Translations under genes and position numbers: made by a program
The notes under the pieces: generated by a model
Databases searched by the model: none
Told to the model about the DNA's origin: nothing
The model's input: the letters and a program-made list of their open reading frames with translations, nothing else
Shown: piece by piece, positions 1,137 through 44,700 of the stretch
Layout: every line of letters starts with the position of its first letter
Numbering within the stretch: the stretch's first letter is position 1
Assembly: GCF_000027125.1 (NCBI RefSeq)
Contig: NC_017626.1
Reading direction: 5' to 3' (one strand)
DNA length: 64,000 nucleotides
Source: Escherichia coli 042
GTDB taxonomy: Bacteria > Pseudomonadota > Gammaproteobacteria > Enterobacterales > Enterobacteriaceae

Positions 1137-2357
1137 ATGAGCCTGGCCGGTAAAAAAATCGTTCTCGGCGTCAGCGGCGGTATTGCTGCCTATAAAACCC
1201 CTGAACTGGTGCGTCGTTTGCGCGATCGCGGGGCCGACGTCCGCGTAGCCATGACCGAAGCGGCAAAAGCCTTTATCACCCCACTTAGCTTGCAGGCGGT
1301 TTCTGGTTATCCCGTTTCCGACAGTCTGCTGGACCCGGCAGCCGAAGCCGCTATGGGCCATATTGAGCTGGGTAAATGGGCTGATTTAGTGATTCTCGCC
1401 CCTGCCACGGCAGATTTGATTGCCCGTGTTGCTGCCGGAATGGCGAATGATCTGGTATCGACGATTTGTCTGGCCACACCTGCGCCTGTAGCCGTGCTCC
1501 CCGCCATGAACCAGCAGATGTACCGTGCCGCTGCCACGCAGCATAATTTAGAGGTGCTTGCTTCCCGTGGTTTGCTCATCTGGGGGCCAGACAGTGGCAG
1601 TCAGGCTTGTGGTGATATCGGCCCTGGGCGAATGCTCGATCCGTTAACCATTGTTGATATGGCGGTAGCGTATTTTTCGCCCGTCAACGACCTGAAACAT
1701 CTGAACATTATGATTACCGCCGGCCCGACGCGTGAACCGCTCGATCCGGTGCGTTATATCTCTAATCACAGCTCAGGCAAGATGGGTTTTGCTATCGCCG
1801 CCGCCGCTGCCCGTCGTGGCGCGAACGTCACGCTGGTATCAGGTCCGGTTTCACTACCGACGCCACCGTTTGTTAAACGTGTTGATGTGATGACTGCGCT
1901 GGAAATGGAAGCGGCCGTGAATGCTTCTGTACAGCAGCAAAATATTTTTATCGGTTGCGCCGCCGTGGCGGATTATCGCGCAGCTACCGTGGCCCCAGAG
2001 AAAATCAAAAAGCAGGCCACGCAGGGTGATGAATTAACAATAAAAATGGTTAAAAACCCCGATATCGTCGCAGGCGTTGCCGCACTAAAAGACCATCGAC
2101 CCTACGTCGTTGGATTTGCCGCCGAAACAAATAATGTGGAAGAATACGCCCGGCAAAAACGTATCCGTAAAAACCTTGATCTGATCTGCGCGAACGATGT
2201 TTCCCAGCCAACTCAAGGATTTAACAGCGACAACAACGCATTACACCTTTTCTGGCAGGACGGAGATAAAGTCTTACCGCTTGAGCGCAAAGAGCTCCTT
2301 GGCCAATTATTACTCGACGAGATCGTGACCCGTTATGATGAAAAAAATCGACGTTAA
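1137..2357 (+). CDS. coaBC: Bifunctional phosphopantothenoylcysteine decarboxylase / phosphopantothenate-cysteine ligase
   Basis: ORF 1065..2357; start placed at the internal Met giving [20 protein letters not shown] (flavoprotein fold N-terminus); synteny yicR-coaBC-dut. Confidence 0.9.
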
Positions 2358-2793
2358 GATTCTGGACCCGCGCGTTGGGAAGGAATTTCCGCTCCCGACT
2401 TATGCCACCTCTGGCTCTGCCGGACTTGACCTGCGTGCCTGTCTCGACGACGCCGTAGAACTGGCTCCGGGTGACACTACGCTGGTTCCGACCGGGCTGG
2501 CGATTCATATTGCCGATCCTTCACTGGCGGCAATGATGCTGCCGCGCTCCGGATTGGGACATAAGCACGGTATCGTGCTTGGTAACCTGGTAGGATTGAT
2601 CGATTCTGACTATCAGGGCCAGTTGATGATTTCCGTGTGGAACCGTGGTCAGGACAGCTTCACCATTCAACCTGGCGAACGCATCGCCCAGATGATTTTT
2701 GTTCCGGTAGTACAGGCTGAATTTAATCTGGTGGAAGATTTCGACGCCACCGACCGCGGTGAAGGCGGCTTTGGTCACTCTGGTCGTCAGTAA
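2335..2793 (+). CDS. dut: dUTP diphosphatase
   Basis: 152-aa [39 protein letters not shown]; overlaps coaBC end; true start may be the second Met at 2338. Confidence 0.9.
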
Positions 2794-2899
2794 CACATAC
2801 GCATCCGAATAACGTCATAACATAGCCGCAAACATTTCGTTTGCGGTCATAGCGTGGGTGCCGCCTGGCAAGTGCTTATTTTCAGGGGTATTTTGTAAC

Positions 2900-3496
2900 A
2901 TGGCAGAAAAACAAACTGCGAAAAGGAACCGTCGCGAGGAAATACTTCAGTCTCTGGCGCTGATGCTGGAATCCAGCGATGGAAGCCAACGTATCACGAC
3001 GGCAAAACTGGCCGCCTCTGTCGGCGTTTCCGAAGCGGCACTGTATCGCCACTTCCCCAGTAAGACCCGCATGTTCGATAGCCTGATTGAGTTTATCGAA
3101 GATAGCCTGATTACTCGCATCAATCTGATTCTGAAAGATGAGAAGGACACCACAGCGCGCCTGCGTCTGATTGTGTTGCTGCTTCTCGGTTTTGGTGAGC
3201 GTAATCCTGGCCTGACCCGCATCCTCACTGGTCATGCACTAATGTTTGAACAGGATCGCCTGCAAGGGCGCATCAACCAGCTGTTCGAGCGTATTGAAGC
3301 GCAGTTGCGTCAGGTATTGCGCGAAAAGAGAATGCGTGAGGGTGAAGGTTACACCACCGATGAAACCCTGCTGGCAAGCCAGATCCTGGCCTTCTGTGAA
3401 GGTATGCTGTCACGCTTTGTCCGCAGCGAGTTTAAATACCGCCCGACGGATGATTTTGACGCCCGCTGGCCGCTAATTGCCGCACAGTTGCAGTAA
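2900..3496 (+). CDS. slmA: Nucleoid occlusion factor SlmA (TetR family)
   Basis: ORF 2858..3496; start placed at [17 protein letters not shown]; TetR-type HTH; synteny. Confidence 0.9.
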
Positions 3497-3501
3497 TATG
3501 A

Positions 3502-3525
3502 CGCCGGATGACTTTTCATCCGGCG
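3502..3525. terminator. Hairpin between convergent slmA and pyrE (likely bidirectional terminator)
   Basis: cgccggatg-actttt-catccggcg inverted repeat directly after the slmA stop and before the pyrE 3' end. Confidence 0.5.
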
Positions 3526-3532
3526 AGTTTCT

Positions 3533-4174
3533 TTAAACGCCGAACTCTTCGCGATAGGCCTTAACCGCCGCCAGATGTTCCGCCATTTCCGGCTTCTCTT
3601 CCAGGTAAGCAATCAGGTCTTTCAAGGTGATGATAGAGATCACTTTGCAGTTGTAATCACGCTCAACTTCCTGAATTGCCGAAATCTCGCCGCGCCCCCG
3701 TTCCTGACGATCGAGCGAAATCAATACGCCAGCAAGCGTCGCGCCATTGGCCTGAATAATTTCCATCGACTCGCGGATCGCCGTTCCGGCGGTGATCACA
3801 TCATCTACCAGCATTACGCGTCCTTGTAACGCGCTACCAACCAGATTGCCGCCTTCACCGTGGTCTTTTGCCTCTTTGCGGTTAAAGCAGTACGGCAGGT
3901 CAAGGTCATGATGCTCCGCCAGCGCCACGGCGGTAGTGGTCGCAATCGGGATCCCTTTGTAAGCAGGGCCAAACAGCAGATCGAACTCAATGCCGGAATC
4001 CACCAATGCTTCAGCGTAAAAACGGCCTAACAGTGCCAGATCGCGCCCGGTATTAAACAGCCCGGCGTTGAAGAAATAGGGGCTTTTGCGCCCGGACTTC
4101 AGCGTAAACTCGCCAAACTTTAACACCTGCTTGCTAAGCGCAAATTCAATAAACTGGCGCTGATATGGTTTCAT
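3533..4174 (-). CDS. pyrE: Orotate phosphoribosyltransferase
   Basis: ORF 3533..4189; start placed at [17 protein letters not shown]-binding motif [12 protein letters not shown]. Confidence 0.9.
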
Positions 4175-4204
4175 GCCTTCGCTCCTCATCTTACTTTTCT
4201 ACAG

Positions 4205-4233
4205 ACAAAAAAAAGGCGACTCATCAGTCGCCT
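4205..4233 (-). terminator. rph-pyrE intercistronic attenuator / intrinsic terminator
   Basis: On the minus-strand transcript, hairpin aggcgactgatgagtcgcct followed by a U-run (complement of A-run 4205-4213), sitting between rph and pyrE; agrees with the known pyrE attenuation mechanism. Confidence 0.6.
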
Positions 4234-4239
4234 TAAAAA

Positions 4240-4956
4240 TCAGTTTGCCAGCGCCGCCTTCTGCGTCGCTACAATGGATTCGATTCCCCCTCGGGCCAGC
4301 GCCAACAAGGTGAGCAGCTCTTCATGGGTGAACGGCTCGCCTTCTGCCGTCCCCTGCACTTCAATGATGCGCCCGTCTTCGGTCATCACTACGTTCATGT
4401 CGGTCTCTGCGGCTGAGTCTTCAACGTATTCCAGATCGCAAACCGCTTCGCCGTTCACAATCCCGACAGAAACTGCGGCTACCATCCCTTTCATCGGGTT
4501 GGTTTTCAGCTTGCCGTTTTCCACCAGCTTCTGTAGCGCATCTGCCAGCGCCACGCAGGCACCCGTAATCGACGCGGTACGAGTGCCACCATCAGCCTGA
4601 AGCACGTCGCAGTCCAGCGTAATGGTGAACTCACCCAGCGCTTTCAAATCTACTGCCGCACGAAGAGCACGGGCGATCAGACGCTGGATTTCCATGGTGC
4701 GTCCACCCTGCTTACCTTTCGCCGCTTCACGCGCGTTACGGGTGTGGGTAGAACGTGGCAGCATGCCGTACTCTGCGGTGATCCAGCCCTGGCCCTGACC
4801 TTTCAGGAAGCGCGGCACGCCTTCTTCAATAGAGGCGGTACACAATACTTTGGTATCGCCAAATTCGACCAGCACCGAGCCTTCTGCATGTTTTGTATAG
4901 TTACGAGTCAGGGTAACGGGACGCACCTGATTATTGCTACGGCCTGCTGGACGCAT
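4240..4956 (-). CDS. rph: Ribonuclease PH (apparently full-length)
   Basis: ORF 4240..4980; start placed at [15 protein letters not shown]; reading frame runs uninterrupted to ...ATQKAALAN. Confidence 0.9.
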
Positions 4957-5082
4957 ATTGAAATCTCCGGCTTGAAACAAATGTGGCTGCGCATTATACG
5001 GACTTCCGGCGGTTATTCCTATCCTGACAAGGCATCGATGGCTATAATCCTTCCACCTCTCCTTTTATAAACAGGAACGTCT

Positions 5083-5946
5083 ATGATCCGCAGTATGACC
5101 GCCTACGCCCGGCGTGAAATCAAGGGTGAATGGGGGAGCGCAACCTGGGAAATGCGCTCGGTAAACCAGCGTTATCTGGAAACTTACTTTCGTCTGCCGG
5201 AGCAGTTCCGTAGCCTTGAACCTGTCGTTCGCGAGCGTATTCGTTCTCGCCTGACGCGCGGTAAAGTGGAATGTACCCTGCGCTATGAGCCAGATGTTAG
5301 CGCGCAAGGTGAGCTGATCCTCAACGAAAAACTGGCTAAACAGCTGGTAACTGCCGCAAACTGGGTGAAAATGCAGAGTGACGAAGGGGAAATCAACCCG
5401 GTTGATATTCTCCGCTGGCCGGGGGTAATGGCAGCCCAGGAGCAGGATCTCGACGCGATTACCGCTGAAATTCTCGCGGCGCTGGATGGTACGCTGGACG
5501 ACTTTATCGTCGCACGCGAAACCGAAGGTCAGGCGCTGAAAGCATTGATCGAGCAGCGTCTGGAAGGCGTCACCGCCGAAGTGGTCAAAGTCCGCGCCCA
5601 TATGCCGGAAATCCTGCAATGGCAGCGTGAGCGTCTGGTCGCGAAGCTGGAAGATGCTCAGGTGCAACTGGAAAACAACCGTCTGGAGCAGGAGTTGGTT
5701 CTGCTGGCACAACGAATTGACGTTGCCGAAGAACTGGATCGCCTCGAAGCGCATGTCAAAGAGACCTACAACATTCTGAAGAAAAAAGAAGCGGTTGGTC
5801 GTCGTCTGGACTTTATGATGCAGGAGTTCAACCGCGAGTCGAACACTCTTGCGTCGAAATCTATCAATGCCGAAGTGACGAATTCTGCCATCGAGCTGAA
5901 AGTGTTGATTGAGCAGATGCGCGAGCAGATCCAGAATATCGAATAA
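5083..5946 (+). CDS. yicC: YicC family stress-induced protein
   Basis: 287-aa ORF MIRSMTAYARREIKGEWGSATWEMRS; synteny rph-yicC. Confidence 0.9.
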   Translation: MIRSMTAYARREIKGEWGSATWEMRSVNQRYLETYFRLPEQFRSLEPVVRERIRSRLTRGKVECTLRYEPDVSAQGELILNEKLAKQLVTAANWVKMQSDEGEINPVDILRWPGVMAAQEQDLDAITAEILAALDGTLDDFIVARETEGQALKALIEQRLEGVTAEVVKVRAHMPEILQWQRERLVAKLEDAQVQLENNRLEQELVLLAQRIDVAEELDRLEAHVKETYNILKKKEAVGRRLDFMMQEFNRESNTLASKSINAEVTNSAIELKVLIEQMREQIQNIE

Positions 5947-6053: not shown

Positions 6054-6077
6054 CGTGTACATAGAGGTGTACATAAT
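6054..6077. repeat. Left boundary direct repeat (candidate att / integrase-binding site)
   Basis: cgtgtacatagaggtgtacataat; recurs at 25959..25982 with 2 mismatches; further tgtacat half-sites at about 6085-6106. Confidence 0.5.
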
Positions 6078-6134
6078 GACTTTCATGTACATTGCTTTAT
6101 GTACACACCCATATTCGATATTCAGGTATTCGCA

Positions 6135-7394
6135 ATGCCAAAACTCACAGATATGCAGATCCGCGCATGGATAAAGGCGGGAGACAGATTTGATGGCAAG
6201 GCAGACGGCAACGGCCTTTATATTTGCTACCCAAAAAACTACACAGTCCCGTTCTGGCGATTCCGCTATAAGCTCGCAGGAAAGCAGCGGGCTATGGTTA
6301 TAGGCTCTTACTCCGAACTGTCACTATCAAAAGCCAGAGAAACAGCAAAAGAGCTGTCAGCCAGAGTTGCTCTTGGCTATGACGTAGCAGCAGAGAAACA
6401 GGAACGAAAAGCTGAAGCACTGGCAAAAATGGAGGCTGAGAAAAACGCCATGTGCGTTTCAGATCTGGCCGCCGAATACTTCGAGCGCCAGATACTTCCA
6501 AGATGGAAACATCCCGATATCCTTCGCCGGAGAATTGATAAGGATATTAACCCCTGCATTGGGCATATGAAGGTGGAGGACGTTAAGCCACGCCACATTG
6601 ACGACATGTTGAAAGGTATCGTTGACCGAGGAGCACCAACGATAGCAACAGATGTATTACGCTGGACACGCCGTATCTTTGACTATGGGATAAAACGCCA
6701 CGCTCTGGAGATAAACCCTTGTTCAGCGTTTGAAGTATCTGATGCTGGTGGTAAAGAGGTTTCCCGCGACCGTTGGCTAACTCGCGATGAGCTTATCAGG
6801 CTATTCGAAGCTATGCGCACCGCAAAAGGATTCAGCCGCCAGAACGAACTGACATTTAAGCTATTGCTGGCACTATGCGTTCGTAAGATGGAGTTATGCG
6901 CCGCACGATGGGAAGAGTTTGATTTAGATGGTGCGGTATGGCATTTGCCGGAAGAACGCAGCAAAAACGGAGACCCTATTGATATACCTCTACCTTCCCC
7001 AGCCGTTGAATGGTTGAGAGAGCTACACACCTTTTCATGTAATAGCGCATGGGTGCTTCCAGCCAGGAAGATGCAAAACAGAATGATCCCACATATTCAG
7101 GAAAGCACTTTGCCCGTAGCACTGGCTAAGGTTCGCGCCGAAATACCGGATGTGCCTAATTTCACGATTCACGACTTCCGACGCACCGCACGTACTCATT
7201 TAGCAGCGTTGGGTGTTGATCCTGTCGTGGCGGAACGATGCCTCAATCATCGCATTAAGGGCGTAGAGGGGATTTATAACCGCCATCAGTATTTTGATGA
7301 GCGTAAAGCAGCACTGGCACAGTGGGCTGATCTGCTGGTGGCACTGGAAAGCGGAAAAGACCACAACGTAACGCCTCTCAGAAGGGCGAACTAA
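6135..7394 (+). CDS. Tyrosine recombinase, P4-type integrase
   Basis: ORF 6051..7394; start placed at MPKLTDMQIRAWIKAGDRFDGKADGNGLY (typical P4-int N-terminal arm-binding domain); C-terminal catalytic region HDFRRTARTHL ... NHRIKGVEGIYNRH. Confidence 0.8.
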   Translation: MPKLTDMQIRAWIKAGDRFDGKADGNGLYICYPKNYTVPFWRFRYKLAGKQRAMVIGSYSELSLSKARETAKELSARVALGYDVAAEKQERKAEALAKMEAEKNAMCVSDLAAEYFERQILPRWKHPDILRRRIDKDINPCIGHMKVEDVKPRHIDDMLKGIVDRGAPTIATDVLRWTRRIFDYGIKRHALEINPCSAFEVSDAGGKEVSRDRWLTRDELIRLFEAMRTAKGFSRQNELTFKLLLALCVRKMELCAARWEEFDLDGAVWHLPEERSKNGDPIDIPLPSPAVEWLRELHTFSCNSAWVLPARKMQNRMIPHIQESTLPVALAKVRAEIPDVPNFTIHDFRRTARTHLAALGVDPVVAERCLNHRIKGVEGIYNRHQYFDERKAALAQWADLLVALESGKDHNVTPLRRAN

Positions 7395-7489
7395 CTGAAT
7401 AGATTGAGCCTAGCTCGACGGGGCGAAAAGCGGGAAGCCTTACCGCCTGGCTCAATCACAAAATAAGGCGCAGCGTAAAAGGTGACGCA

Positions 7490-8335
7490 ATGAAAAAACT
7501 ACCACCAAATCTCTTTTTCCGACTTAATAGAGCAGCAAATTTATTAGAAATAGAAGTCGATGATCTTCTACTTATGGGAGTATCAGGCTCTATATTTTTG
7601 AGCACAATAATTCACCAGTATGAAGGCGTACTCTATCAAGCGGGAAACTTGCCACCAGACCACGGCAGCAAAGACATAGAAAACTTATTATTTGGTTCTA
7701 TTATTTCTACTAGAGAAGATACCGAAAGATATCTAAATGAAGGTGTTTTCGATGGTATGAAGTGCTTAGCAAGTGGATTATGGCACGTTCCTAGTGATTT
7801 CATTGCTTCCCTTGCAGGGGTTAAGAGAGCCCCTGACATTCCACTCATATTCTCACCAGCATATATAAAAAAAGAACTAGATATCACATCAGGACGTTAC
7901 TTTTTCTACGATTTTCGCGAACATGATACCACCGTATCGTCTGTGGAAGATTTGTATATATCAAGACCGTGGGTTGAATATATAGCTGAAAGCATGGATA
8001 AAAATCAGCCAATACCCAGCATACTCCATTTGGGTTCACACGATCTTTATGAAAAGGAATTTAAAAACATAGAGCATGGAAATAGAGCACGACATAGCCT
8101 GAACCGTGAGAATAGCATTATGGCGTTGATTTATGTGAAACGGCACTATCCGGAAGAGTGCAAAGGGAAAAACGGGAAAGAAACCAACGAAGCGTGGGCA
8201 AACGCTACGATAGACCACTGGCCACATGTGGGTGGCGATTATGATGAACCATCTACAGATTATTTAAAGAAGATCATATCTGACATGGACAGATTGCCGG
8301 AAAAACGTACCACGGCAGGAAAGAAGAAATCATGA
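7490..8335 (+). CDS. Hypothetical protein, AT-rich orphan cargo gene next to the integrase
   Basis: 281-aa ORF; visibly AT-rich codon usage compared with flanking genes (not computed); no family recognised. Confidence 0.55.
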   Translation: MKKLPPNLFFRLNRAANLLEIEVDDLLLMGVSGSIFLSTIIHQYEGVLYQAGNLPPDHGSKDIENLLFGSIISTREDTERYLNEGVFDGMKCLASGLWHVPSDFIASLAGVKRAPDIPLIFSPAYIKKELDITSGRYFFYDFREHDTTVSSVEDLYISRPWVEYIAESMDKNQPIPSILHLGSHDLYEKEFKNIEHGNRARHSLNRENSIMALIYVKRHYPEECKGKNGKETNEAWANATIDHWPHVGGDYDEPSTDYLKKIISDMDRLPEKRTTAGKKKS

Positions 8336-8447
8336 TAATAAAATTTAGTATCGTGACAATAAAATTTACTGTAATTCACTTTTGAGCATGCACACCATTA
8401 AATACCCGTAACGAAGCAACAACTATCGCTAAGAGGTTACGGGAAGC

Positions 8448-8651
8448 ATGAACACCGACACGATTCCTACAAAAGGCTATATCAGACGCTTTCGCCTGGC
8501 TGAATTGCTGGGCGTTAGTGTATCCACCATCGACCGTAAAGTAAGAAACGGTTCACTACCACGTCCGGTAAAGCTGGGAGAAAAAATAACTGCGTTTGAT
8601 GCGGTTGAGATTCACAACTGGCTGGCAGAACGCCGCGGGAAGGTGGCCTGA
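8448..8651 (+). CDS. AlpA-family prophage transcriptional regulator (HTH)
   Basis: 67 aa; IRRFRLAELLGVSVSTIDRKVRNGSLPRPVKLGEKITAFDAVEIHNWL matches the AlpA/Vis HTH pattern. Confidence 0.75.
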   Translation: MNTDTIPTKGYIRRFRLAELLGVSVSTIDRKVRNGSLPRPVKLGEKITAFDAVEIHNWLAERRGKVA

Positions 8652-9082
8652 TGGAAAAGAAAAACCGCCCATTACAGGCGGCTAATTCAGATACTCGCGT
8701 ATCTGATGTTACGCCCCTTACAAAATCCCTTCAAGCACCAAAGCGCACACCGAAAAAGCATCGTGCCAGAGTCTATATGCTGCGTACTGGTATAGAGGGA
8801 TGGACAGAAAATGACATTCTTCGCTACTGCCGCCTGTCTTCTGGTCGTAACTATGCAACAGAGTTAGAACGCCAGCTTGGAATCACTCTGGAGCGTATCG
8901 ACGAAAAGAATCCTGATGGTATCGGAACACACCTTCGCTACCGTTTCTCCTGCCGCGGTGATGTTCTGAAAGTGATCACTCATATTAACCATCTTGCGAA
9001 CATAAATGATCACAACGGACTTTCTCAGCAGGAAATTGCCGACATTCTGAAACTCTACCCGGACGCGTTTAACGCCGCCTAA
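8651..9082 (+). CDS. Hypothetical protein
   Basis: 143-aa ORF, start overlaps the AlpA stop (translational coupling). Confidence 0.5.
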   Translation: MEKKNRPLQAANSDTRVSDVTPLTKSLQAPKRTPKKHRARVYMLRTGIEGWTENDILRYCRLSSGRNYATELERQLGITLERIDEKNPDGIGTHLRYRFSCRGDVLKVITHINHLANINDHNGLSQQEIADILKLYPDAFNAA

Positions 9083-9094
9083 CGGAGACTGAAA

Positions 9095-9928
9095 ATGAAC
9101 ATCGAAAAAAGCAGATTAATTTCTGAGGCCGCCCCTCATCTGAACGCCTCTCTGGGCACAATTAACGGTAATGAATTTGCCGCAATTGTCCCGGTTATTC
9201 CTGGTCACATCGGTGGGCGTGAAACCAATATTGTTAGCGCAAAAGCGTTACACAAAGCGTTGGGCGTGGGAAAAGACTTCTCTACATGGATCACTGATCG
9301 CATCTCTGAATATGACTTCACCATTGGGCACGATTACTCAGTCCATAAAACAATTTCCCCAAATTTGGGGAAAAGCCCGAATGGCGCGGCTTACAGCAAG
9401 ATTAAGCAGTCTGGCAGACCCGGCAAAGACTATCTGTTAAGTGTCGGAATGGCGAAAGAACTGGCAATGATCGAACGCAATGATCAGGGTCGCGCTATCC
9501 GTCGTTATTTCATCCAGTGCGAGGAAGAATTACAGCGTAGCGTGCCTGAAATCGCCGCCCGCTATCGTCGCCAGCTAAAAGCCCGTATCAGTGCCGCAAA
9601 CAACTTTAAGCCAATGTGCGATGCGCTGAATATGGCCCGTGCCGAGCAGGGGAAAACGACGCAGCAACACCACTACACAAACGAGAGCAATATGATTTCT
9701 CGTATCGTTCTTGGAGGGCTAACTGCTAAGCAGTGGGCGCGGATAAATGGCTATTCTGGCGAACCTCGCGACCATATGAACGCAGAACAGCTTGAGCACC
9801 TCTCATATCTCGAAAGCACCAATATCACGTTAATTGATATGGGCATGGAATATGAGCAGCGCAAAGGAGAACTCACCCGCCTGTCGCAACGCTGGCTCGC
9901 CAAGCGTCTGGAGGCGGTCCATGTTTAA
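9095..9928 (+). CDS. Phage antirepressor-like protein (KilA-C / Ant-type)
   Basis: 277 aa; the segment DYLLSVGMAKELAMIERNDQGRAIRRYFIQCEEE resembles the KilA-C/antirepressor signature. Confidence 0.55.
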   Translation: MNIEKSRLISEAAPHLNASLGTINGNEFAAIVPVIPGHIGGRETNIVSAKALHKALGVGKDFSTWITDRISEYDFTIGHDYSVHKTISPNLGKSPNGAAYSKIKQSGRPGKDYLLSVGMAKELAMIERNDQGRAIRRYFIQCEEELQRSVPEIAARYRRQLKARISAANNFKPMCDALNMARAEQGKTTQQHHYTNESNMISRIVLGGLTAKQWARINGYSGEPRDHMNAEQLEHLSYLESTNITLIDMGMEYEQRKGELTRLSQRWLAKRLEAVHV

Positions 9929-10103
9929 GCCGACAGGAACACCACAACCTCAAAAACGCTACAAAGATGCCCACGGAGCACTCGTTACTGTCGAAAGCGT
10001 GTCTCACAACCGAGTGACGTTTTATCGCGACGGGTATCAATCGCCATGCGTACAACCGCTGGCGCGCTTCATGAAGGAGTTCGCGGAGGTTAACAAATGC
10101 TAA
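9921..10103 (+). CDS. Hypothetical small protein
   Basis: 60 aa; ATG overlaps the stop of the upstream gene. Confidence 0.4.
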   Translation: MFKPTGTPQPQKRYKDAHGALVTVESVSHNRVTFYRDGYQSPCVQPLARFMKEFAEVNKC

Positions 10104-10599
10104 CCGTCCAGAAGAAGATATTTTCACTGGCTGGTATGTCGCCAAAATCCAGCAATATGACAGCAAAGTCTGGCATTAATACAGCAGATGCAAGCAAAGT
10201 TTATCATTTTCTGGTGGTAGGAGCGGATGCCTTAACTATGTCAGAAATTACGGTCGATGGTGTTAGCGTTGAGAAGGTCGGCGGCTGCGCCAGAGAATTT
10301 CTGGTCGTAGATGGCTTTCTCTGCTCGCGTAGTGACTCCACAAAAACCTTCGTCCACACGCGCGACGTTAACGAAATGAGCGCGATGTATTGTGCATCTG
10401 GTGCTTCCAATAGTGAGTTTTCGGAGTCCATAAAAAAGAGCTTGCCGTTATGCGGCAACACGGTTTATGGTTATAAGGCACCTCATAAAACGGGTGCCGG
10501 GATTGGCGTCCTGGTAAATCGAATGGCGACATATGACGCGCCGAGCGTCTTTTTTTATGTCGTAGGTCTGACTCACCCATTTTTTGGGCGTTGGTGTAT

Positions 10600-10730
10600 A
10601 ATCCAGCGCCTTTGTCAATCAATGGTGGCTCAGGCAGGGGCTTCTTCGGAAGCGCCGGTATCCATTCGAGCCGGTTACGCCAACCCTGTCTGGGCTACCA
10701 CCAGCGAAATTGGCGTTTCCGGTGGTAGCG
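10600..10730 (+). ncRNA. Candidate structured RNA (P1 C4 / P4 CI-type immunity RNA) upstream of the icd-like ORF
   Basis: Block conserved with 51380..51505; the stem gctaccacc/ggtggtagc here corresponds to gctatcgcc/ggcgatagc there (compensatory changes), and a second hairpin gcttc/gaagc corresponds to cagcc/ggctg. Confidence 0.45.
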
Positions 10731-10758
10731 TTACATGCTATCGAATGGAGGCTGCCAC

Positions 10759-10953
10759 ATGCTGGCTACTACCCCTACCCAAAAACCGCAATTTATCTGG
10801 ATTATCGCCGCAGTTCGCCGCGATTGCCCGACAATTACCGCCAAAATTCATCATATTGCTGCCGAGTCTGAACGCGATGCTCGCCGTTCTCTGGTGCGCG
10901 ATCACGTCTGCTTTTTTGCTGGTCGTATCCGCATGGAGGTGGCACATGATTAA
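10759..10953 (+). CDS. Icd-like small protein (host cell-division inhibitor family, tentative)
   Basis: 64 aa; ...FIWIIAAVRRDCP...[15 protein letters not shown] is homologous to the island-2 ORF 51527..51724; RBS ggagg upstream. Confidence 0.5.
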   Translation: MLATTPTQKPQFIWIIAAVRRDCPTITAKIHHIAAESERDARRSLVRDHVCFFAGRIRMEVAHD

Positions 10954-11156
10954 AACCTACGATGTGCATATGGATCCCCTCGAACGCACAAGCCAGATCA
11001 TCACACTGACAGAAGTGATTAACGACATTCTGGTGAGCAACTCTCCCTCACGAGACGAAAGACTGAAGGCGTTACTCGCGATATTGGATCTCGCCGTTCG
11101 TGACGTTCATTTCCTGCTGGAAGGTGGCGAAATGCCAGGAAAAACGGGGGCAACCA

Positions 11157-11351
11157 ATGAATAACTCAATTAATGCCCCTCGACTTACGTCCGCACTTCA
11201 ATTAATCGAGCAAGCAGCGGCTGTCCTGGTTGCTGTCAGTCTTTCGGCTGAAGAAATGGACGCTGCTGATGTCGTGGATGCGATTAAAGCGTGCTCATCT
11301 TTGGTTAACGATGCCCGTGCAGAGCTGGTAATTCTTGGGGGTGAAAAATGA
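11157..11351 (+). CDS. Hypothetical small protein
   Basis: ORF 11100..11351, start placed at MNNSINAPRL; part of a chain of overlapping small ORFs upstream of the primase. Confidence 0.45.
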   Translation: MNNSINAPRLTSALQLIEQAAAVLVAVSLSAEEMDAADVVDAIKACSSLVNDARAELVILGGEK

Positions 11352-11611
11352 ATATCAACTTAATTTATCGTCATCCGTGTGAGCTGGAAATTGAATCATT
11401 GCTGAGTCGTGAAGAGCTATATCCAGACACATTCACTCTTGCAGATCGCACGACTGAACGGCTTACCAGAGCGCGCACAGGTCTGGTTCATGTGATGAAT
11501 GAGATTCTTCCATCGGTGGGAGGGGAACAGGCGACAGTAATCAATAGCTGGCTACAAAAAGTTACCTCCCTGATAGATATCAGTTTAATCGATGCGGAGA
11601 GTGCGAAATGA
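11348..11611 (+). CDS. Hypothetical small protein
   Basis: 87-aa ORF, start overlaps the upstream stop. Confidence 0.45.
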   Translation: MNINLIYRHPCELEIESLLSREELYPDTFTLADRTTERLTRARTGLVHVMNEILPSVGGEQATVINSWLQKVTSLIDISLIDAESAK

Positions 11612-11829
11612 CCAACATCCAGCTCATTGAAGCGCAATGTCGCATCGAACAGGTTCAGACTGTTTTAGGGTTCTGGCTTGAAGGGGCCAGCCCCAGCAAC
11701 AGAGACAAGTTAATGATTGGCGCGGTTATGTCACTGCTCAATGGCGTACCAGAAGCTATTCAGGAAGCAGACGAATTGTTGGGCAAATATGAGTTACAGA
11801 ATCATTCAGGCGAGGCGAAACATGAATAA
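11608..11829 (+). CDS. Hypothetical small protein
   Basis: 73-aa ORF, start overlaps the upstream stop. Confidence 0.45.
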   Translation: MTNIQLIEAQCRIEQVQTVLGFWLEGASPSNRDKLMIGAVMSLLNGVPEAIQEADELLGKYELQNHSGEAKHE

Positions 11830-12424
11830 TTTCTTAACCTTCCATGCAGAAGCAACGCCTGACGGCGTAAACATCATGCACCGCAGCAACGATGGCATGA
11901 CAGAACGCGTTGAGACCGTTTCATATATTGATGCCGTAAATCGTCTGGATGCCGGGGATTATGACGATAAACCAGATGAAGGTATGTCAATACATCTCGC
12001 TATTGCCGATGGCGGCAACCAGGGATATTTCGATTACACATCACAGCATAACGTCATTATGTGGAGATGGCTGATCGCAACAGTATTCATGCTGGAAATG
12101 AGAGAGGAAAACGGCACTGTCAGCATCATTGATGATACTGGCAATCCTTCCGAAGTGGCTGTTTATTCCAACGGCATCGTCGCCATGCCGCTGTATCCAG
12201 TAGCAGAGCGCCTCGCTATGGCAAACAACATTGAGGGCGCGATGATAGAACGTTTTGGCATCGAGTCTGGCACAGAACGCGCCATCATTTTCTACAGAGC
12301 CATGATGGATGTGGAACAAGGAGCACTGACTCCATTTGGTCGTGAAACGCTTGCTGAACTTCACAACAGCTTTATAGCTGAACTGAATGAAAACGGCATG
12401 CCAGCGGAACCAGTGACGCACTGA
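11822..12424 (+). CDS. Hypothetical protein
   Basis: ORF 11717..12424; start placed at MNNFLTFHAEA, overlapping the previous stop. Confidence 0.45.
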   Translation: MNNFLTFHAEATPDGVNIMHRSNDGMTERVETVSYIDAVNRLDAGDYDDKPDEGMSIHLAIADGGNQGYFDYTSQHNVIMWRWLIATVFMLEMREENGTVSIIDDTGNPSEVAVYSNGIVAMPLYPVAERLAMANNIEGAMIERFGIESGTERAIIFYRAMMDVEQGALTPFGRETLAELHNSFIAELNENGMPAEPVTH

Positions 12425-12434
12425 GGATGGATCC

Positions 12435-12776
12435 ATGATTACTAAAAATTTCCGACTGAATGCGCTGGCAAATAAGTATGCGTCGGCACTGTATAACCAC
12501 ATTACCTCCACCAGCGGCGGGGACTATTTCATGGTTCATGCGGACGGCGAGGCCGTCCGTGTGGAAATCGTCAATGGAGTAAAAGGCGTTCGCAGCCTGA
12601 TCGATAGCTACACACTGGCAGCCATGAAAGTGTTCTACCCGCAGTGGGAAACCGTGGGGATAGAGCTTCTTGATCGTTGCGTCACTAAGGACGGATTGAC
12701 TGACGTCGGGCGTGAGATATGGCAAAGCATGGTTAATGACATGGGCGCAACTGTAGCGGGAGGTTCTCATGCGTGA
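12435..12776 (+). CDS. Hypothetical protein
   Basis: 113-aa ORF. Confidence 0.45.
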   Translation: MITKNFRLNALANKYASALYNHITSTSGGDYFMVHADGEAVRVEIVNGVKGVRSLIDSYTLAAMKVFYPQWETVGIELLDRCVTKDGLTDVGREIWQSMVNDMGATVAGGSHA

Positions 12777-13140
12777 AAATGCAGAAATGGCGCTTAGCTC
12801 CGCAATCGGAGAGCAGGTGGCAAAGATTGCTGGCGCTGTGTGGATTCATAACCTTCATTCTACTGGTGAAGAGAAAATGGCAATTCAGACGCCAGAGGGA
12901 CGCACCATTACTACATCTCTGAAGGCGTCAGATGTTTGTGATCTGATTTGCGCATTCATGTACCCAGCAATGAGGACTGTCCACGGCGATAAGTGGAAAC
13001 TTGCGACAACCGCTGAATTTGATATGTGGCTAAACAATGATGGCATGCTGACTGATTACGGAATAACCAAGTGGCAGATGCTGGTTAGCCATATCGCAAA
13101 CGCTATAGACCACGTGGGGTACGGTGATGCGAAACATTGA
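12769..13140 (+). CDS. Hypothetical protein
   Basis: 123-aa ORF overlapping its neighbours. Confidence 0.45.
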   Translation: MRENAEMALSSAIGEQVAKIAGAVWIHNLHSTGEEKMAIQTPEGRTITTSLKASDVCDLICAFMYPAMRTVHGDKWKLATTAEFDMWLNNDGMLTDYGITKWQMLVSHIANAIDHVGYGDAKH

Positions 13141-15883
13141 TCTTATCCGCCAGGTTATCAGTGCGTCTGAAAACAACTGGCCTCATGTGCTGGGCTGCCT
13201 GAACATAAATGTCCCTGACTCTCCGCGCCGTCATGCTCCCTGCCCTGCATGTGGGGGCAAAGATCGATTCCGGTTCGATGACAACGGGCGCGGTAGCTTC
13301 ATCTGTAATCAGTGCGGCGCTGGTGATGGACTGGATTTAATTAAACGCGTAAATAACTGCGACACAACAGAGGCGGCGCTTCTTGCCGCTGATGTTCTGG
13401 GTATTGATTACCGGACAACGGAAACACCAGAAGCCACCAGCCAGAAACGGGAACAACTGGAAACCGAGCGCCAGCGACGCGAACAGGAGCGCCTGAAAAG
13501 GGCAGAGAAGGACGAACAACAAAGACGGGATACGTTTTCCCGTCAGTTTGATGACATGCGCAGAAAGGCTGTAAACGGCAAATCTGATTATCTGGTTGCG
13601 AAAGGGGTAGGTGATTTTACATTCCCCGTGTTGCCCGATGGATCTCTGTTGCTGGCGCTGGTGGATAAATCCGGCGCAGTAACAGCAGCACAGACTATTA
13701 CCTCACATGGTGAAAAAAGACTCCTGACAGGTTCAGCAAAGCGAGGGGCATATCACGCCATAAACGCACCAGAAACAACACAGAGCATCTTAATCGCAGA
13801 AGGGCTGGCAACGGCATTATCTGCCCATTTAATTCGTCCAGAGGCGCTGACAGTGGCGGCGATTGATGCCGGGAACCTGTTATATGTCGCCCAGGTACTG
13901 CGGGATAAATTTCCTTCAGCACAAATCATCATTGCTGCGGATAACGACCACAGCGAAGGAAGACAAAACACGGGGAGAATAGCAGCAGAAAAAGCAGCTT
14001 TATCTGTTTCTGGATGGGTGGCATTACCCCCGACAGATCACAAAGCAGACTGGAATGATTACCACCAAAAACACGGCATTAAATGCGCCACAGAAGCGTT
14101 CAATAAGTCAATGTACCAACCACAGGGTAATGGCGTGAAACAGGAGCCACAGACCATTGAGGGAAGCGATTTTAAGGTTATGGATACCGACCCACTGAAA
14201 CCAAGAATAGAAAGCCGCGAGGATGGTATTTATTGGGTATCTCCGAGAGCTGACAGCCAGAGTGGAGAAATCATCAATAACGAAAGCTGGTTATGTTCTC
14301 CGTTAAGCGTTATCGGTACTGGCAGAGACGATAAAGACCAGTATCTCATTCTTCGCTGGCTGTCGTTTGGTTCTGAAACGCCGACAACCGCTGCCATTCC
14401 ACTGGCTGATATTGGTGAACGTGAAGGATGGCGCACACTTAAAGCTGGTGGGGTAAATGTCACGACCAAAAGCAGCCTCAGAGCAATACTGGCAGACTGG
14501 CTACAACGCAGTGGCTCTCGTGAATTGTGGCGTGTTGCTCATGCCACTGGCTGGCAATGCGGAGCGTACATCATGCCTGATGGGGAAATCATCGGAACAC
14601 CTGAAAATCCTGTGCTGTTCAGCGGGAGAAGCTCAGCCGCAGCCGGATATACCGTCTCAGGGAGCGCGAAAAGCTGGCGTGATAACGTGGCGCGTCTGGC
14701 CTTTGGTAACTATTCAATGATGACCGGGATCGGCGCAGCACTGGCAGCGCCATTGATTGGGCTGGTGGGCGCTGACGGGTTCGGCATTCATTTCTATGAG
14801 CAGTCGAGCGCAGGTAAGACCACCACGGCAAACGTGGCGAGCAGCTTATACGGCAACCCTGATTTACTGCGGCTGACGTGGTACGGAACCGCGCTGGGGC
14901 TGGCAAATGAGGCCGCCGCCCACAATGACGGACTAATGCCGCTTGATGAAGTTGGTCAGGGCGCTGATCCTGTCAGCGTTTCACAGTCTGCCTATGCGTT
15001 ATTTAACGGTGTAGGGAAACTGCAAGGCGCTAAAGATGGTGGAAACCGGGATCTAAAACGCTGGCGTACAGTGGCAATCAGCACCGGAGAAATGGATTTA
15101 GAAACATTTATCGCTACTTCCGGGCGAAAAACCAAAGCCGGGCAACTGGTGCGACTGCTGAATATTCCGTTGAGTAAAGCAGTACGCTTTCACGATTACC
15201 AGAACGGAAAACAGCACGCAGACGCACTGAAAGACGCTTACCAGCATCACCACGGCGCAGCCGGGCGTGAGTGGATTAAATGGCTGGCAGACCACCAGCA
15301 ACAGGCAATTAAAACTGTTCGTGACTGCGAAAGCAGATGGAGAAGTCTGATCCCATCCGATTATGGTGAGCAGGTTCACCGTGTAGCCGCGCGATTTGCC
15401 ATTCTGGAGGCCGCATTGCTGTTAGGCGAGGTTGTAACAGGCTGGGATGCTCAGACATGCCGTGATGCGATACAGCACAGCTATAACGCATGGTTGCGCG
15501 AGTTCGGCACAGGTAACAAAGAACATCAGCAGATTATTGAACAAACGGAGGCATTTCTTAATGCCTATGGGCTTAGCCGTTTTGCACCATTTCCATACAG
15601 CCCGGCAGATTTGCCCATCAAAGATTTAGCCGGATACCGTCAGCGTGGAGAACATGACGAAAGCCCAATGATTTTCTACACATTCCCGGCCACATTTGAA
15701 AAGGAGATCGCATGTGGTTTCAACGCAAAACAGTTTGCTGAAGTGTTGAAAAAAGCCGGGATGCTAACCCCACCAAACAGCGGTCGTGGATACCAAAGAA
15801 AATCACCACGTATTCAGGGACGACAAATAAACGTTTATGTACTCAATTACCAGCCAGGAGATTACAACTCATCTGAAGAATGA
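13124..15883 (+). CDS. P4 alpha-like primase/helicase (zinc-binding N-terminus, TOPRIM primase, D5-type NTPase)
   Basis: 919 aa; CPACGGKDRFRFDDNGRGSFICNQCGAGDGLD parallels the island-2 alpha N-terminus; IAEGLATAL...IIIAADND (TOPRIM); SSAGKTT (P-loop). Confidence 0.85.
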   Translation: MMRNIDLIRQVISASENNWPHVLGCLNINVPDSPRRHAPCPACGGKDRFRFDDNGRGSFICNQCGAGDGLDLIKRVNNCDTTEAALLAADVLGIDYRTTETPEATSQKREQLETERQRREQERLKRAEKDEQQRRDTFSRQFDDMRRKAVNGKSDYLVAKGVGDFTFPVLPDGSLLLALVDKSGAVTAAQTITSHGEKRLLTGSAKRGAYHAINAPETTQSILIAEGLATALSAHLIRPEALTVAAIDAGNLLYVAQVLRDKFPSAQIIIAADNDHSEGRQNTGRIAAEKAALSVSGWVALPPTDHKADWNDYHQKHGIKCATEAFNKSMYQPQGNGVKQEPQTIEGSDFKVMDTDPLKPRIESREDGIYWVSPRADSQSGEIINNESWLCSPLSVIGTGRDDKDQYLILRWLSFGSETPTTAAIPLADIGEREGWRTLKAGGVNVTTKSSLRAILADWLQRSGSRELWRVAHATGWQCGAYIMPDGEIIGTPENPVLFSGRSSAAAGYTVSGSAKSWRDNVARLAFGNYSMMTGIGAALAAPLIGLVGADGFGIHFYEQSSAGKTTTANVASSLYGNPDLLRLTWYGTALGLANEAAAHNDGLMPLDEVGQGADPVSVSQSAYALFNGVGKLQGAKDGGNRDLKRWRTVAISTGEMDLETFIATSGRKTKAGQLVRLLNIPLSKAVRFHDYQNGKQHADALKDAYQHHHGAAGREWIKWLADHQQQAIKTVRDCESRWRSLIPSDYGEQVHRVAARFAILEAALLLGEVVTGWDAQTCRDAIQHSYNAWLREFGTGNKEHQQIIEQTEAFLNAYGLSRFAPFPYSPADLPIKDLAGYRQRGEHDESPMIFYTFPATFEKEIACGFNAKQFAEVLKKAGMLTPPNSGRGYQRKSPRIQGRQINVYVLNYQPGDYNSSEE

Positions 15884-16645: not shown

Positions 16646-17107
16646 ATGGAACTAAAATTTATTGATAACCCTGTGCGATTACAGGCCTTTCTTAACGATC
16701 CTGGCAATACCGAAAATATTGTTGAGCCGGGGCACACGTACTACATCAAGCCTGATGCGGTATATCTCGGCATCTACGAAGGATTGGTGCTGGCTGGCGT
16801 TCATGAAGTGCGTAACTTCTGGCATAGCATTGTTGAATGCCATGCGGTGTACGACCCCGGATTCCGTGGTGAATATGCACTGCAAGGGCATCGATTATTC
16901 TGCAAATGGCTTCTCGAAAACTCACCATTCCTTAACAGCATCACTATGGTTCCTGACACCACGAAATACGGACGGGCAATTATCCGTTTGCTTGGCGCTA
17001 CCCGTGTTGGTCACCTTGATGATGCTTATATCAGATGTGGTAAACCCGTCGGCGTAACGCTTTATCAGTTAACTCGGCAACAATATAAGGAATTCAGCGA
17101 ATGTTAA
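16646..17107 (+). CDS. Hypothetical protein, first gene of a four-gene coupled operon
   Basis: 153-aa ORF; its stop overlaps the next start. Confidence 0.55.
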   Translation: MELKFIDNPVRLQAFLNDPGNTENIVEPGHTYYIKPDAVYLGIYEGLVLAGVHEVRNFWHSIVECHAVYDPGFRGEYALQGHRLFCKWLLENSPFLNSITMVPDTTKYGRAIIRLLGATRVGHLDDAYIRCGKPVGVTLYQLTRQQYKEFSEC

Positions 17108-17778
17108 TTACCCATATAGCTCATAAACATCTCAATCGTGCCGTATACGAAAAAGGCGGTGATGGTGGTGCCTCTAAAGCTCAGGCGAAGGCCCAGCAGC
17201 AGGCAATTGATTTGCAGCGCGAGCAGTGGAATACGGTGATGAATAATCTCAAGCCGTATGCAGAAGTCGGATTGCCTGCTTTACAACAACTACAAGGACT
17301 GATGACTCTGGAAGGGCAGAATAAAGCCGCGAATGATTTCTTTGGTTCTGGTTTATATAAAACACAGGCAGATCAGGCCCGTTATCAGAACCTTGTCTCA
17401 GCAGAAGCTACCGGGGGGCTTGGCTCAACAGCTACCAGTAACCAGTTATCTTCCATTGCGCCCATGCTTTATAACAATTGGCTTAGTGGGCAAATGCAAA
17501 ATTATGGAAACCTGCTAAATGTCGGGATGAATGCGGCATCAGGGCAGGCAACGGCAGGGCAAAACTACGCCAATAATACCGGACAACTCTTGCAGGGGCT
17601 TGGCGCTATTCGTGCAGGTCAGGCGCAGCAGCCATCCAGTCTTGCGCGTGGTATTGGTGGGGCGGCATCAGGCGCTTTAGCGGGTGCGCAACTTGGTTCC
17701 GTTGTTCCGGGTATAGGTAATGTCGCCGGGGCTATTGGTGGTGGGCTTATTGGTCTTGTTGGGGGGCTTGGATTCTAA
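17101..17778 (+). CDS. Hypothetical protein with glycine-zipper C-terminus
   Basis: 225 aa; C-terminus GIGGAASGALAGAQLGSVVPGIGNVAGAIGGGLIGLVGGLGF. Confidence 0.55.
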   Translation: MLITHIAHKHLNRAVYEKGGDGGASKAQAKAQQQAIDLQREQWNTVMNNLKPYAEVGLPALQQLQGLMTLEGQNKAANDFFGSGLYKTQADQARYQNLVSAEATGGLGSTATSNQLSSIAPMLYNNWLSGQMQNYGNLLNVGMNAASGQATAGQNYANNTGQLLQGLGAIRAGQAQQPSSLARGIGGAASGALAGAQLGSVVPGIGNVAGAIGGGLIGLVGGLGF

Positions 17779-19199
17779 TGGCGACATGGCAACTTGGCGG
17801 GCTGCCTAGCATGGCACCGCAAAATGATAATGCTCCTCGTTCTTCCGTTCCTCAGCCTGTGCAGTATCAGCAGCAGCCAAACGTAGGTTTAATGGCGCTA
17901 CAGGGGCTAAGAGGCGTTGCTGAGATTAATCAGCAGGCACGTCAACAACAGCGTAAAGCAGAGTTTCAGAAAGCATATGCCGGGGCTTTTGAGTCTGGAG
18001 ACAGAAACAAAATGCGCAGTCTTATTTCTGAGTATCCAGAAGAATTTGAAAGCGTTCAGAAAGGGATGGGCTTTATTGATGACGACCAGAGAAATTCTAT
18101 TGGTCATCTTGCGACTAGTGCTCAAATCGCATCTTCGCTCGGAACTGGGGCATTTGGAAAATTCATAGCAGATAACGAAGATGAAATGCGTCGCTTGGGA
18201 ATTTCTCCTGAGTCTGTTGCCGAAATGCATGTTAATGATCCACAGGAATTCCAGCGGCTTGCTGGTAGTATGGCACTGTTTTCTCTCGGTCATGAGAAGT
18301 ACTTCGATATCAAAGATCGAATGGAAGGTCGGGATATTGAGCGTGGCAAGTTGGCAGAGACAATCCGCAGCAATCAGGCTGGAGAGGCGCTTCAGGCGAG
18401 AGGGCAGGATATTAGCCGAGCAAATGCGTTAACGTCAGCATATGCACCAACAGCCGCAATGCAGAATTACAATCAGTACGCGCAAATGTTAAAGGCGGAT
18501 CCAGAGGGGGCAGCGGCATTTGCGGCAGCGGCTGGAATTAATACAAACGCCAAAAAATTAATGAGTGTTAGGGAAAACGATGATGGCACTGTCACAAAAT
18601 ACTACACAGACGGAAGTGAAGAGCAGGGAAAACTAAACCAGCCAATATCTGGAGATGGGTTTCGTCCAATAGCTTTGCCAACAGCCCAAAAGATCATGGA
18701 AAAGTCGCCAGAAGGGGCTAAAAAAGCTGCTGGATTTGCATACAGAGTTAGGGATGCTCTTGATTCAATGGATACACTGAAAGGCCAGCTTAGCCCACAG
18801 CGAGTGGCGATCATTAATAATGCTTTGGGTAATGGGACGCTGGCTAACTTAACGCTCAGCCCAACAGAGCAGCAATACGTTGTTAATGCTAATGACGCAA
18901 TAATGGCAATACTCCGTCAGGAAACAGGGGCAGCTATCGTACCTGCTGAAATGTCAAAATATTATCAAATGTATTTCCCTCAGCCTGGCGACTCCACAAA
19001 AACCATTGATACCAAGCGCCGGAAGATGGAAAACCAGTTCAATTCGCTGAAAGCTGCTTCTGGTCGAGCTTATGATGCTTTGCGTGTTATTTCAGCAGTT
19101 GACAGAGGAACTTCTTCTTCGTCGCAGACATTGCCGCAATCTGAGCAGGTATCACAGCCAGCAGCCAGCAGTAATTTTTCTTCACTATGGGGTGATTAA
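17778..19199 (+). CDS. Hypothetical protein (Q/A-rich)
   Basis: 473-aa ORF, start overlaps the previous stop. Confidence 0.55.
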   Translation: MATWQLGGLPSMAPQNDNAPRSSVPQPVQYQQQPNVGLMALQGLRGVAEINQQARQQQRKAEFQKAYAGAFESGDRNKMRSLISEYPEEFESVQKGMGFIDDDQRNSIGHLATSAQIASSLGTGAFGKFIADNEDEMRRLGISPESVAEMHVNDPQEFQRLAGSMALFSLGHEKYFDIKDRMEGRDIERGKLAETIRSNQAGEALQARGQDISRANALTSAYAPTAAMQNYNQYAQMLKADPEGAAAFAAAAGINTNAKKLMSVRENDDGTVTKYYTDGSEEQGKLNQPISGDGFRPIALPTAQKIMEKSPEGAKKAAGFAYRVRDALDSMDTLKGQLSPQRVAIINNALGNGTLANLTLSPTEQQYVVNANDAIMAILRQETGAAIVPAEMSKYYQMYFPQPGDSTKTIDTKRRKMENQFNSLKAASGRAYDALRVISAVDRGTSSSSQTLPQSEQVSQPAASSNFSSLWGD

Positions 19200-44605: not shown

Positions 44606-44700
44606 GGAAGATCGTCGTCTCCGGTGAGGCGGCTGGACTTCAAATCCAGTTGGGGCCGCCAGCGGTCCCGGGCAGGTTCGACTCCTGTGATCTTCCGCCA
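44606..44700 (+). tRNA. selC: tRNA-Sec (selenocysteine, anticodon UCA)
   Basis: 95-nt ggaagatcgtcgtctccggtgaggcggctggacttcaaatccagttggggccgccagcggtcccgggcaggttcgactcctgtgatcttccgcca; long extra arm; anticodon loop cTTCAaa. Confidence 0.95.

Follow-up and report, generated by a model that had tools for sequence, protein, structure and literature searches.

The window analyzed here is a 64,000-nt stretch of DNA from Escherichia coli 042 (contig NC_017626.1), and it contains an open reading frame, which we call X, located between the gene of a tyrosine integrase (int) and an excisionase-type gene (alpA) (Table 1; related islands and loci are denoted by L numbers and homologous proteins by P numbers). 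The X reading frame ends in TGA, and a Shine-Dalgarno-like AAGGTG is found 7 nt 5' of its ATG. The window sequence is 100% identical to the E. coli chromosome of strains U12A-U15A, and the RefSeq entry for X in the identical genomes is WP_000735991.1, "hypothetical protein". A preliminary description of this DNA reported an AT-rich ORF of 281 aa between the integrase and the AlpA gene, and this is correct, including the exact coordinates. The GC content of X is 0.398 (0.38-0.42 in 500-nt windows over X, compared to ~0.49-0.51 over int and ~0.47-0.52 downstream), and the GC3 is 0.35, versus 0.48 for int, 0.50 for alpA and 0.48 for the primase gene. X is a real gene and more than a chance ORF, because 62 alignment columns are invariant among its full-length homologues at 37-56% identity, a profile made from eight close homologues matches 175 cluster representatives at E<=1e-3, and the reading frame is unbroken in 36 E. 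coli genomes. A copy with 97.5% identity differs from X by 16 changes, of which 12 are non-synonymous (within-allele pN/pS ~0.8, from small numbers), and 10 of the 11 amino-acid changes sit in residues 43-176. These changes, few as they are, fit a fast-evolving middle domain of X. X is the only member of its family in the window.

Table 1. Features of the X locus and its host island (window positions).
Feature	Position	Strand	Remarks
Tyrosine integrase (int)	6135..7394	+	RefSeq annotation
int-alpA RNA motif (Rfam RF02996)	7403..7469	+	Located between int and X, 21 nt 5' of the X ATG
X (slot gene)	7490..8335	+	Intact ORF, ATG to TGA, 281 aa
X-alpA spacer, upstream of the alpA leader	8336..8404	+	First ~55 nt (to ~8390) allele-specific, swapped with X
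Conserved alpA leader	8405..8447	+	Hairpin; conserved across alleles
alpA, excisionase-type HTH	8448..8651	+	Identical protein in L002 annotated AlpA family
Remaining early genes	8651..15883	+	Bro zone (PM1773-family, AntA/AntB, DUF4222, Ash) and replication zone
TOPRIM-DUF927 primase	13127-15883	+	Replication zone; RefSeq annotation
PerC-family regulator	23567-23854		3' accessory zone
Doc-family toxin	24267-24728	-	3' accessory zone
337-aa ORF upstream of the Doc-family toxin gene	24737-25750	-

The island that carries X is bounded by yicC and yicG (roughly 5960-26200, ~20 kb). According to the RefSeq annotation, its genes are arranged in the order int, X, alpA, a PM1773-family gene, AntA/AntB, DUF4222, Ash, several small ORFs and a primase gene of the TOPRIM-DUF927 type, followed by four P22-like DNA-ejection genes, a reverse-strand HTH gene, PerC, and a Doc-family toxin with a partner ORF. 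The alpA product matches the NCBIfam "excise" domain at E 1.6e-4, which is below the curated cut-off; AlpA acts as the master activator and/or excision factor of Gram-negative satellites (PMC6092414, PMC11773190, PMC10803314). Gram-negative PICIs consist of four zones, namely Integration, Bro, Replication and Late (PMC10111431). The island has this four-zone layout, unidirectional int, alpA and primase genes and a specific att site, and lacks capsid, tail and lysis genes; its ~20 kb compare with 10-20 kb for Gram-negative PICIs. Judged by its gene content, the host island is a Gram-negative PICI, that is, an EcCIMP1-like phage satellite.

The late zone (16646-21304, + strand) encodes homologues of P22 ejection and internal proteins (DUF2824, gp7-like, gp20-like and gp16-like) and, as in EcCIMP1, is devoid of genes for capsid, tail or lysis. 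It would be unusual for a satellite to equip the virion of a P22-like helper with DNA-ejection proteins of its own. In the late zone of L025 a protein with a lytic-transglycosylase domain takes the place of the last gene. The 3' accessory zone (22706-25750) includes the reverse-strand HTH gene, which resembles alpA_1 of EcCIMP1. The content of this zone differs among sister islands, with an Abi-family protein in L024, ImmA/IrrE and an unknown gene in L025, and the Doc toxin here, and it is in this zone that the island has its real hotspot of variable cargo. TGTACA / GTGTACATAA repeats cluster at both island ends, with four copies at 6055-6106 and two at 25957-25983; these are likely to be arm-type sites of the integrase or sites of another att-bound protein. 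In other strains (L001, L024) the island is adjoined by dinD, which is missing from the window. Elsewhere in the window, a tRNA-SeC gene is found at 44606-44700 (+). tRNA-SeC genes are a classic integration site of islands, and this copy probably marks the second island mentioned in the preliminary description.

The int-X-alpA region is matched in 684 of 5426 complete E. coli genomes (~13%), and only 36-37 of these genomes have this particular X ORF. In eight related islands the slot between int and alpA is always occupied by one ORF of 216-321 aa, and six allele types, including that of the window, can be distinguished, all of low GC content (0.355-0.433). Compared to the proteins encoded in the window, Int of these islands is 90-99% and AlpA 69-100% identical, whereas the slot protein is only 17-26% identical. 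Breakpoints between BLAST pieces indicate that the swapped segment spans from the X start codon to ~55 nt past the X stop, and several alleles carry their own terminator, consisting of a hairpin and a T-run. With near-identical Int flanks, divergent slot proteins and a bounded swapped segment, the slot is hypervariable and acts as an exchangeable cassette between near-identical islands.

Four of the six allele types (L002, L003/L009, L007 and the allele of the window) belong to the same protein family; an HMM of 146 family members matches the first three at E 1e-45 to 1e-54. The alleles of L004, L006 and L008 (293 aa) did not qualify as full family members, as only ~45 N-terminal residues align, and weakly so (hhalign E 3e-4, probability 38%), and the 216-aa allele of L005 is unrelated. 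In L005, from E. coli AHM8C160RI, the slot gene (1901-2551) overlaps int by 4 nt in the manner of the iolg genes discussed below, and a 470-nt AT-rich non-coding stretch precedes alpA; the exact sequence of this allele is very common, occurring in at least 1000 contigs. The idea that X alleles track the type of the late zone was rejected, given that islands with different alleles all carry P22-like ejection genes.

The spacers on both sides of X contain conserved as well as allele-specific elements. The copy of the RF02996 motif in the int-X spacer scores 60.6 bits with Infernal (E 2e-11), compared to a gathering score of 35.8, and folds stably (-32.4 kcal/mol, z -2.3). Its outer stem, GATTGAGCC/GGCTCAATC, is replaced in L004 by GACCGGAAC/GTTCCGGTC, which is a compensatory change, and the L003/L009 and L005 alleles lack the motif. 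As far as these islands are concerned, the "int-alpA" RNA is in fact an int-X leader element. Because no promoter-like or terminator-like site is present between int and X, co-transcription of X with int is predicted, and X is probably made together with Int.

The portion of the X-alpA spacer that differs between alleles contains AATAAAATTTA[G/C]T as a direct repeat at 8337-8349 and 8358-8370 (+), with the two copies 21 nt apart, and other alleles have different palindromes in this spacer, for example, TGTATA-TC-TATACA in L003. These repeats and palindromes may be candidate allele-matched binding sites, or they may have arisen by chance. The conserved alpA leader that follows contains a hairpin, CCCGTAAC-N23-GTTACGGG (8405-8443, +), which is present in the MFE fold and whose 3' arm abuts the Shine-Dalgarno sequence AAGAGG. 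The hairpin shows paired changes in L005 (AGTAAC/GTTACT) and L006 (TGTAAC/GTTACG), and it could be an element of translational or transcriptional control, or a protein-binding inverted repeat for alpA induction.

The observation in the preliminary description that X has no recognizable motif was confirmed, with no match to X in Pfam, NCBIfam, PADLOC, PHROGs or PDB sequences. Pfam also identified no family in 146 relatives of X, and sequence and profile searches of the PDB with full-length X and with its C-terminal and N-terminal domains returned only noise and designed repeat proteins. No relative was found by tblastn in 50,697 phage records; a pattern search (A5) of genome contigs yielded 130 matches, none of which was confirmed by tblastn, and a word-indexed profile search with alignment A2 found only 13 proteins, nearly all of them already known. 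However, X is not an orphan, as it had been called. The 175 cluster representatives detected by the profile are mostly 230-380 aa long, with a few shorter fragments, and many of them match as separate N-terminal and C-terminal stretches, while Foldseek detects 227 relatives in AFDB at E<=1e-3. Fifty of the AFDB relatives were listed, and all are labelled "Uncharacterized" except for one fragment labelled as a putative integrase; the hosts among the AFDB matches listed are Enterobacterales, Aeromonas, Vibrio, Shewanella and Oceanimonas, all Gammaproteobacteria. X is one allele of a large, unnamed, fast-diverging and modular family that extends across Gammaproteobacteria.

Three parts can be told apart in the X protein. 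Residues ~5-50 form the N-terminal part, residues ~50-180 a hypervariable middle rich in beta structure, and residues ~185-270 a helical, conserved C-terminal module with the motif HGN..R....NRE...ALIY....P.EC, after which comes a basic tail, RTTAGKKKS. Pairwise identity averages 0.37 for the N-terminal 40 residues, 0.15 for the middle and 0.28 for the C-terminal module. The modules are combined in a mosaic manner. The slot proteins of L002 and L003 share 78% identity, but solely over their 74 C-terminal residues, whereas those of L007 and P0012 are 57% identical over residues 10-258 and differ in their C-terminal modules. Family members have a winged-helix-like N-terminal domain in common, followed by a middle that is hypervariable and by C-terminal modules that are interchangeable. 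The AF2 model of X, computed from the 146-sequence alignment, has a mean pLDDT of 84. Residues 9-50 are predicted to form a beta-alpha-alpha-beta-beta unit (pLDDT 93-98), the middle is beta-rich and partly of low confidence, and the C-terminal domain is helical with pLDDT above 90 (90 when modelled as a separate domain). The topology predicted for residues 9-50 and the genomic proximity to a tyrosine integrase gene are reminiscent of the excisionase/MerR-type winged helix (HTH_17, Phage_AlpA; Xis, TorI), but there is no significant sequence match to such proteins, and X is four times larger and has two further domains. The N-terminal domain of X may thus tentatively be described as Xis/MerR-like winged-helix in shape, the fold assignment being weak.

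The position of the family relative to int and alpA is constant. In the 13 contexts in which family members were read, down to ~20% identity, all are located directly 5' of alpA, and all but two are directly 3' of int; one of the two exceptions is a short contig and the other contains cargo (L021). Among the distant homologues P0033, P0060, P0024, P0042, P0064, P0049 and P0030, all seven lie immediately 5' of a Phage_AlpA gene and five immediately 3' of int, with the contig of P0049 (L020) too short to show int; further downstream they are followed by primases of P4-type, D5/DUF5906 or DUF927. L021 is an enterobacterial island at the same yicG/ligB locus, where ~5 kb of extra genes (1350-5853) lie between int and the X-family gene, including an HTH_31 and Peptidase_M78 (ImmA/IrrE-like) pair and unknowns of 244 aa and 351 aa. 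It shows where 5' cargo inserts, namely between int and X and not between X and alpA.

These results bear on the suggestion that X occupies a variable cargo slot of a phage-related element. The element is a satellite and the variability of the slot across related islands is extreme, but X is not interchangeable cargo, because one family is found in four of the six allele types and always in the same place directly upstream of alpA. Thus, the sequence in the slot is hypervariable while its occupant is mostly of one family, unlike in a defence hotspot. The possibility, also raised earlier, that X is a conserved core gene of its element family is borne out for position and family membership, though not as far as invariance of the sequence is concerned.

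Genes in the same position have been described in PICMI, the small satellites of Vibrionaceae, where the gene between int and alpA is called iolg if it overlaps int (typically ATGA) and icg if it is contiguous with it (Barcia-Cruz et al. 2024, PMC10803314). The overlap in the iolg class amounts to 1, 4 or 13 nt (PMC10803314). Such genes are present in 25 of 35 PICMI subfamilies and make up 13 families, all of unknown function, and three subfamilies have no int-alpA slot gene at all (PMC10803314). Deletion of iolg in PICMI115 abolishes helper-induced excision, packaging and transduction, and int/iolg complements the deletion; the authors proposed that constitutive Int and IOLG form an excision complex with phage-induced AlpA (PMC10803314). 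Overexpression of alpA in PICMI115 left expression of satellite genes unchanged, and AlpA is thought to be an excisionase there and not a regulator (PMC10803314). We found no follow-up work on satellite iolg in the literature.

Like iolg and icg, X is the sole gene between int and alpA, has the orientation of both and is extremely diverse, and neither X nor iolg/icg has been assigned a fold or function. X differs from iolg in that it does not overlap int and is separated from it by a 95-nt gap that holds the RNA motif, in which respect it resembles icg. The host elements differ as well, iolg and icg being genes of PICMI and X a gene of a 20-kb enterobacterial PICI at yicC with a P22-like late zone. 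IMG/VR was searched for the fis-end att repeat of PICMI-type elements, and the family HMM was run on the 14 loci returned. Two of these, both fis-integrated satellites, carry family members, L035 (1532-2236, E 4e-17) and L037 (11155-11955, E 1e-26), and in both the gene has a 4-nt overlap (ATGA in L035) with the preceding integrase gene and is followed by a Pfam Phage_AlpA gene, with a P4-family primase further on in L035. Because these genes overlap int and precede alpA, the family includes genes that satisfy the positional definition of iolg. X is, as predicted from its position, an enterobacterial PICI member of the positionally named iolg/icg class. The proposed link between X and iolg draws on where X is located, on other family members that overlap int by ATGA and on the class being defined by position, and with IOLGd, the iolg product of PICMI115, the comparison was one of position. 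Whereas the slot families are treated as distinct in the PICMI paper (PMC10803314), many of them are united here by shared N-terminal, middle or C-terminal modules. What appears to be new is that many seemingly distinct int-alpA slot genes form one modular superfamily over Gammaproteobacteria.

Other known systems resemble the locus to different degrees. The E. coli PICI EcCIMP1, which is mobilised by Kapi1, a P22-like phage (Pick et al. 2025, PMC11773190), shares with the present island int, alpA, an antirepressor, Ash, the primase, "DNA transfer" (ejection-protein) genes, the reverse-strand HTH gene and PerC. It differs in that it integrates at tRNA-Thr and has only a small ORF in the slot (EcCIMP1_002, mis-annotated as UvrB-like), which is not of the X family. 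In EcCICFT073 alpA appears to be the second ORF, which would leave no slot gene (PMC6092414). [quoted passage not shown] In the SaPI islands, which are Gram-positive PICIs, the master repressor gene stl adjoins int, and Stl consists of an N-terminal HTH and highly divergent sensor domains that recognize different helper-phage proteins. Stl alleles differ between otherwise related SaPIs; the HTH is of XRE type, the repressor is divergently transcribed, and loss of Stl induces the island. X, in contrast, is co-directional with int and alpA, has no sequence or fold relationship to Stl, and belongs to a slot class for which the only known phenotype is loss of excision.

The most economical reading of these data is that X is a life-cycle component of the integration and induction module and not cargo. 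In its specific form, with X as a core excision or induction cofactor that contains a specificity domain and represents the PICI counterpart of iolg/icg, we consider this reading about evenly balanced between right and wrong. X would be expressed with Int and act with Int and phage-induced AlpA in helper-dependent excision or induction. The N-terminal domain would perform an element-facing task, binding DNA at att or at a promoter, or else binding Int or AlpA, while the interchangeable C-terminal helical modules would provide a second conserved contact or oligomerisation. The hypervariable middle would confer specificity for a changeable partner, most plausibly a cue from a helper phage or a competing element, and alleles of X are exchanged as cassettes between otherwise near-identical islands. 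Excision can work without a slot gene, since X is lacking in EcCIMP1, which has a small ORF in its place, in EcCICFT073, which apparently has none, and in three PICMI subfamilies. A purely structural cofactor does not by itself account for the hypervariability, the low GC content and the pN/pS ratio of ~0.8, and the fast diversification is better explained by a protein that reads a changeable signal.

One way in which X could read such a signal is as a sensor of the helper phage that regulates the alpA promoter: the MerR-like domain would bind near PalpA and the variable domain would recognize a phage protein, and this recognition would either activate alpA or, as with Stl, relieve repression. 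We regard this explanation as unlikely. The exchanged cassette takes in the spacer segment where the -35 side of the alpA promoter probably lies, together with the allele-specific repeats or palindromes, although as operators these are candidates only, short enough to have arisen by chance. The combination of an N-terminal HTH with a divergent sensor and the position next to int parallel those of SaPI Stl. Helper induction of alpA in Gram-negative PICIs is unexplained and no repressor has been identified (PMC6092414, PMC10803314), which leaves room for a regulator of this kind, and the loss of excision that follows deletion of the PICMI iolg agrees with an activator or sensor being required (PMC10803314). 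A sensor acting as a repressor, on the other hand, predicts constitutive induction upon deletion, and PICMI115 gave the opposite result; moreover, alpA overexpression in PICMI115 was without effect on satellite gene expression (PMC10803314), and elements that have no X-family gene, such as EcCIMP1, are still helper-inducible (PMC11773190).

The preliminary description proposed a candidate single-gene antiphage protein. In such an antiphage or interference role, X would use its variable domain to bind a phage component and thereby stop infection or inhibit a competing phage, and it would belong to a 5' PICI accessory region. Cassette swapping between flanks that are 90-99% identical, own terminators in several alleles, low GC content in all alleles, and within-allele changes concentrated in the middle domain (pN/pS ~0.8) are what such a role would lead one to expect; 5' ends of PICIs can carry immune systems (PMC11364771), and satellites carry small defence proteins with no obvious effector, for example, Tai and UP2 (PMC11364771, PMC10803314). 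However, none of the models or candidate models of PADLOC-DB 2.0 matches X, even at E<=1, the AF2 models contain no predicted nuclease, NTPase, TIR, Sir2 or membrane domain, the phage records searched hold no relative, and the recognizable defence-type and toxin genes are located at the 3' end of the island instead. In addition, one family keeps the slot across several orders of Gammaproteobacteria, always against alpA. Defence hotspots normally hold unrelated systems. The cassette swaps, the low GC content and the 5' location in a PICI speak for the proposal, the lack of both a PADLOC match and an effector-like domain speaks against it, and a defence function of X is quite unlikely. It is hardly credible that X is a decaying or functionless hitchhiker ORF in a recombination-prone spacer. 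The AT-rich composition, the lack of annotation in any library and a pN/pS ratio near 0.8, derived from only 16 differences, would be compatible with such a hitchhiker, but X is uninterrupted in its 36 genomes, homologues at 37-56% identity retain invariant motifs, the architecture persists throughout the family at identities as low as ~20%, and AF2 models the terminal domains with confidence.

It is not yet understood how helper phages activate Gram-negative PICIs, PICMIs and related satellites (PMC6092414, PMC10803314), and the only genetic clue at the int-alpA slot is the requirement of PICMI115 iolg for excision (PMC10803314). X provides a concrete candidate for the specificity determinant of satellite induction, and E. 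coli offers a natural series of alleles, with near-identical Int and AlpA and different X, which appears to be new. The case of X also serves as a warning that adjacency to an integrase and low GC content are insufficient to call a gene defence cargo. A broader proposal, which we consider unlikely, is that X and the iolg/icg superfamily are the missing helper-phage sensor of Gram-negative satellites, combining a conserved winged-helix domain that faces DNA or Int with a rapidly swapped recognition domain, which would detect a particular protein of a phage or rival element and in this way license alpA induction and excision. If the sensor reading is true, swapping of alleles would re-target an otherwise unchanged satellite to new helpers, the system would be a functional parallel to SaPI Stl of independent evolutionary origin, and it would address the question of how Gram-negative satellites detect their helpers.
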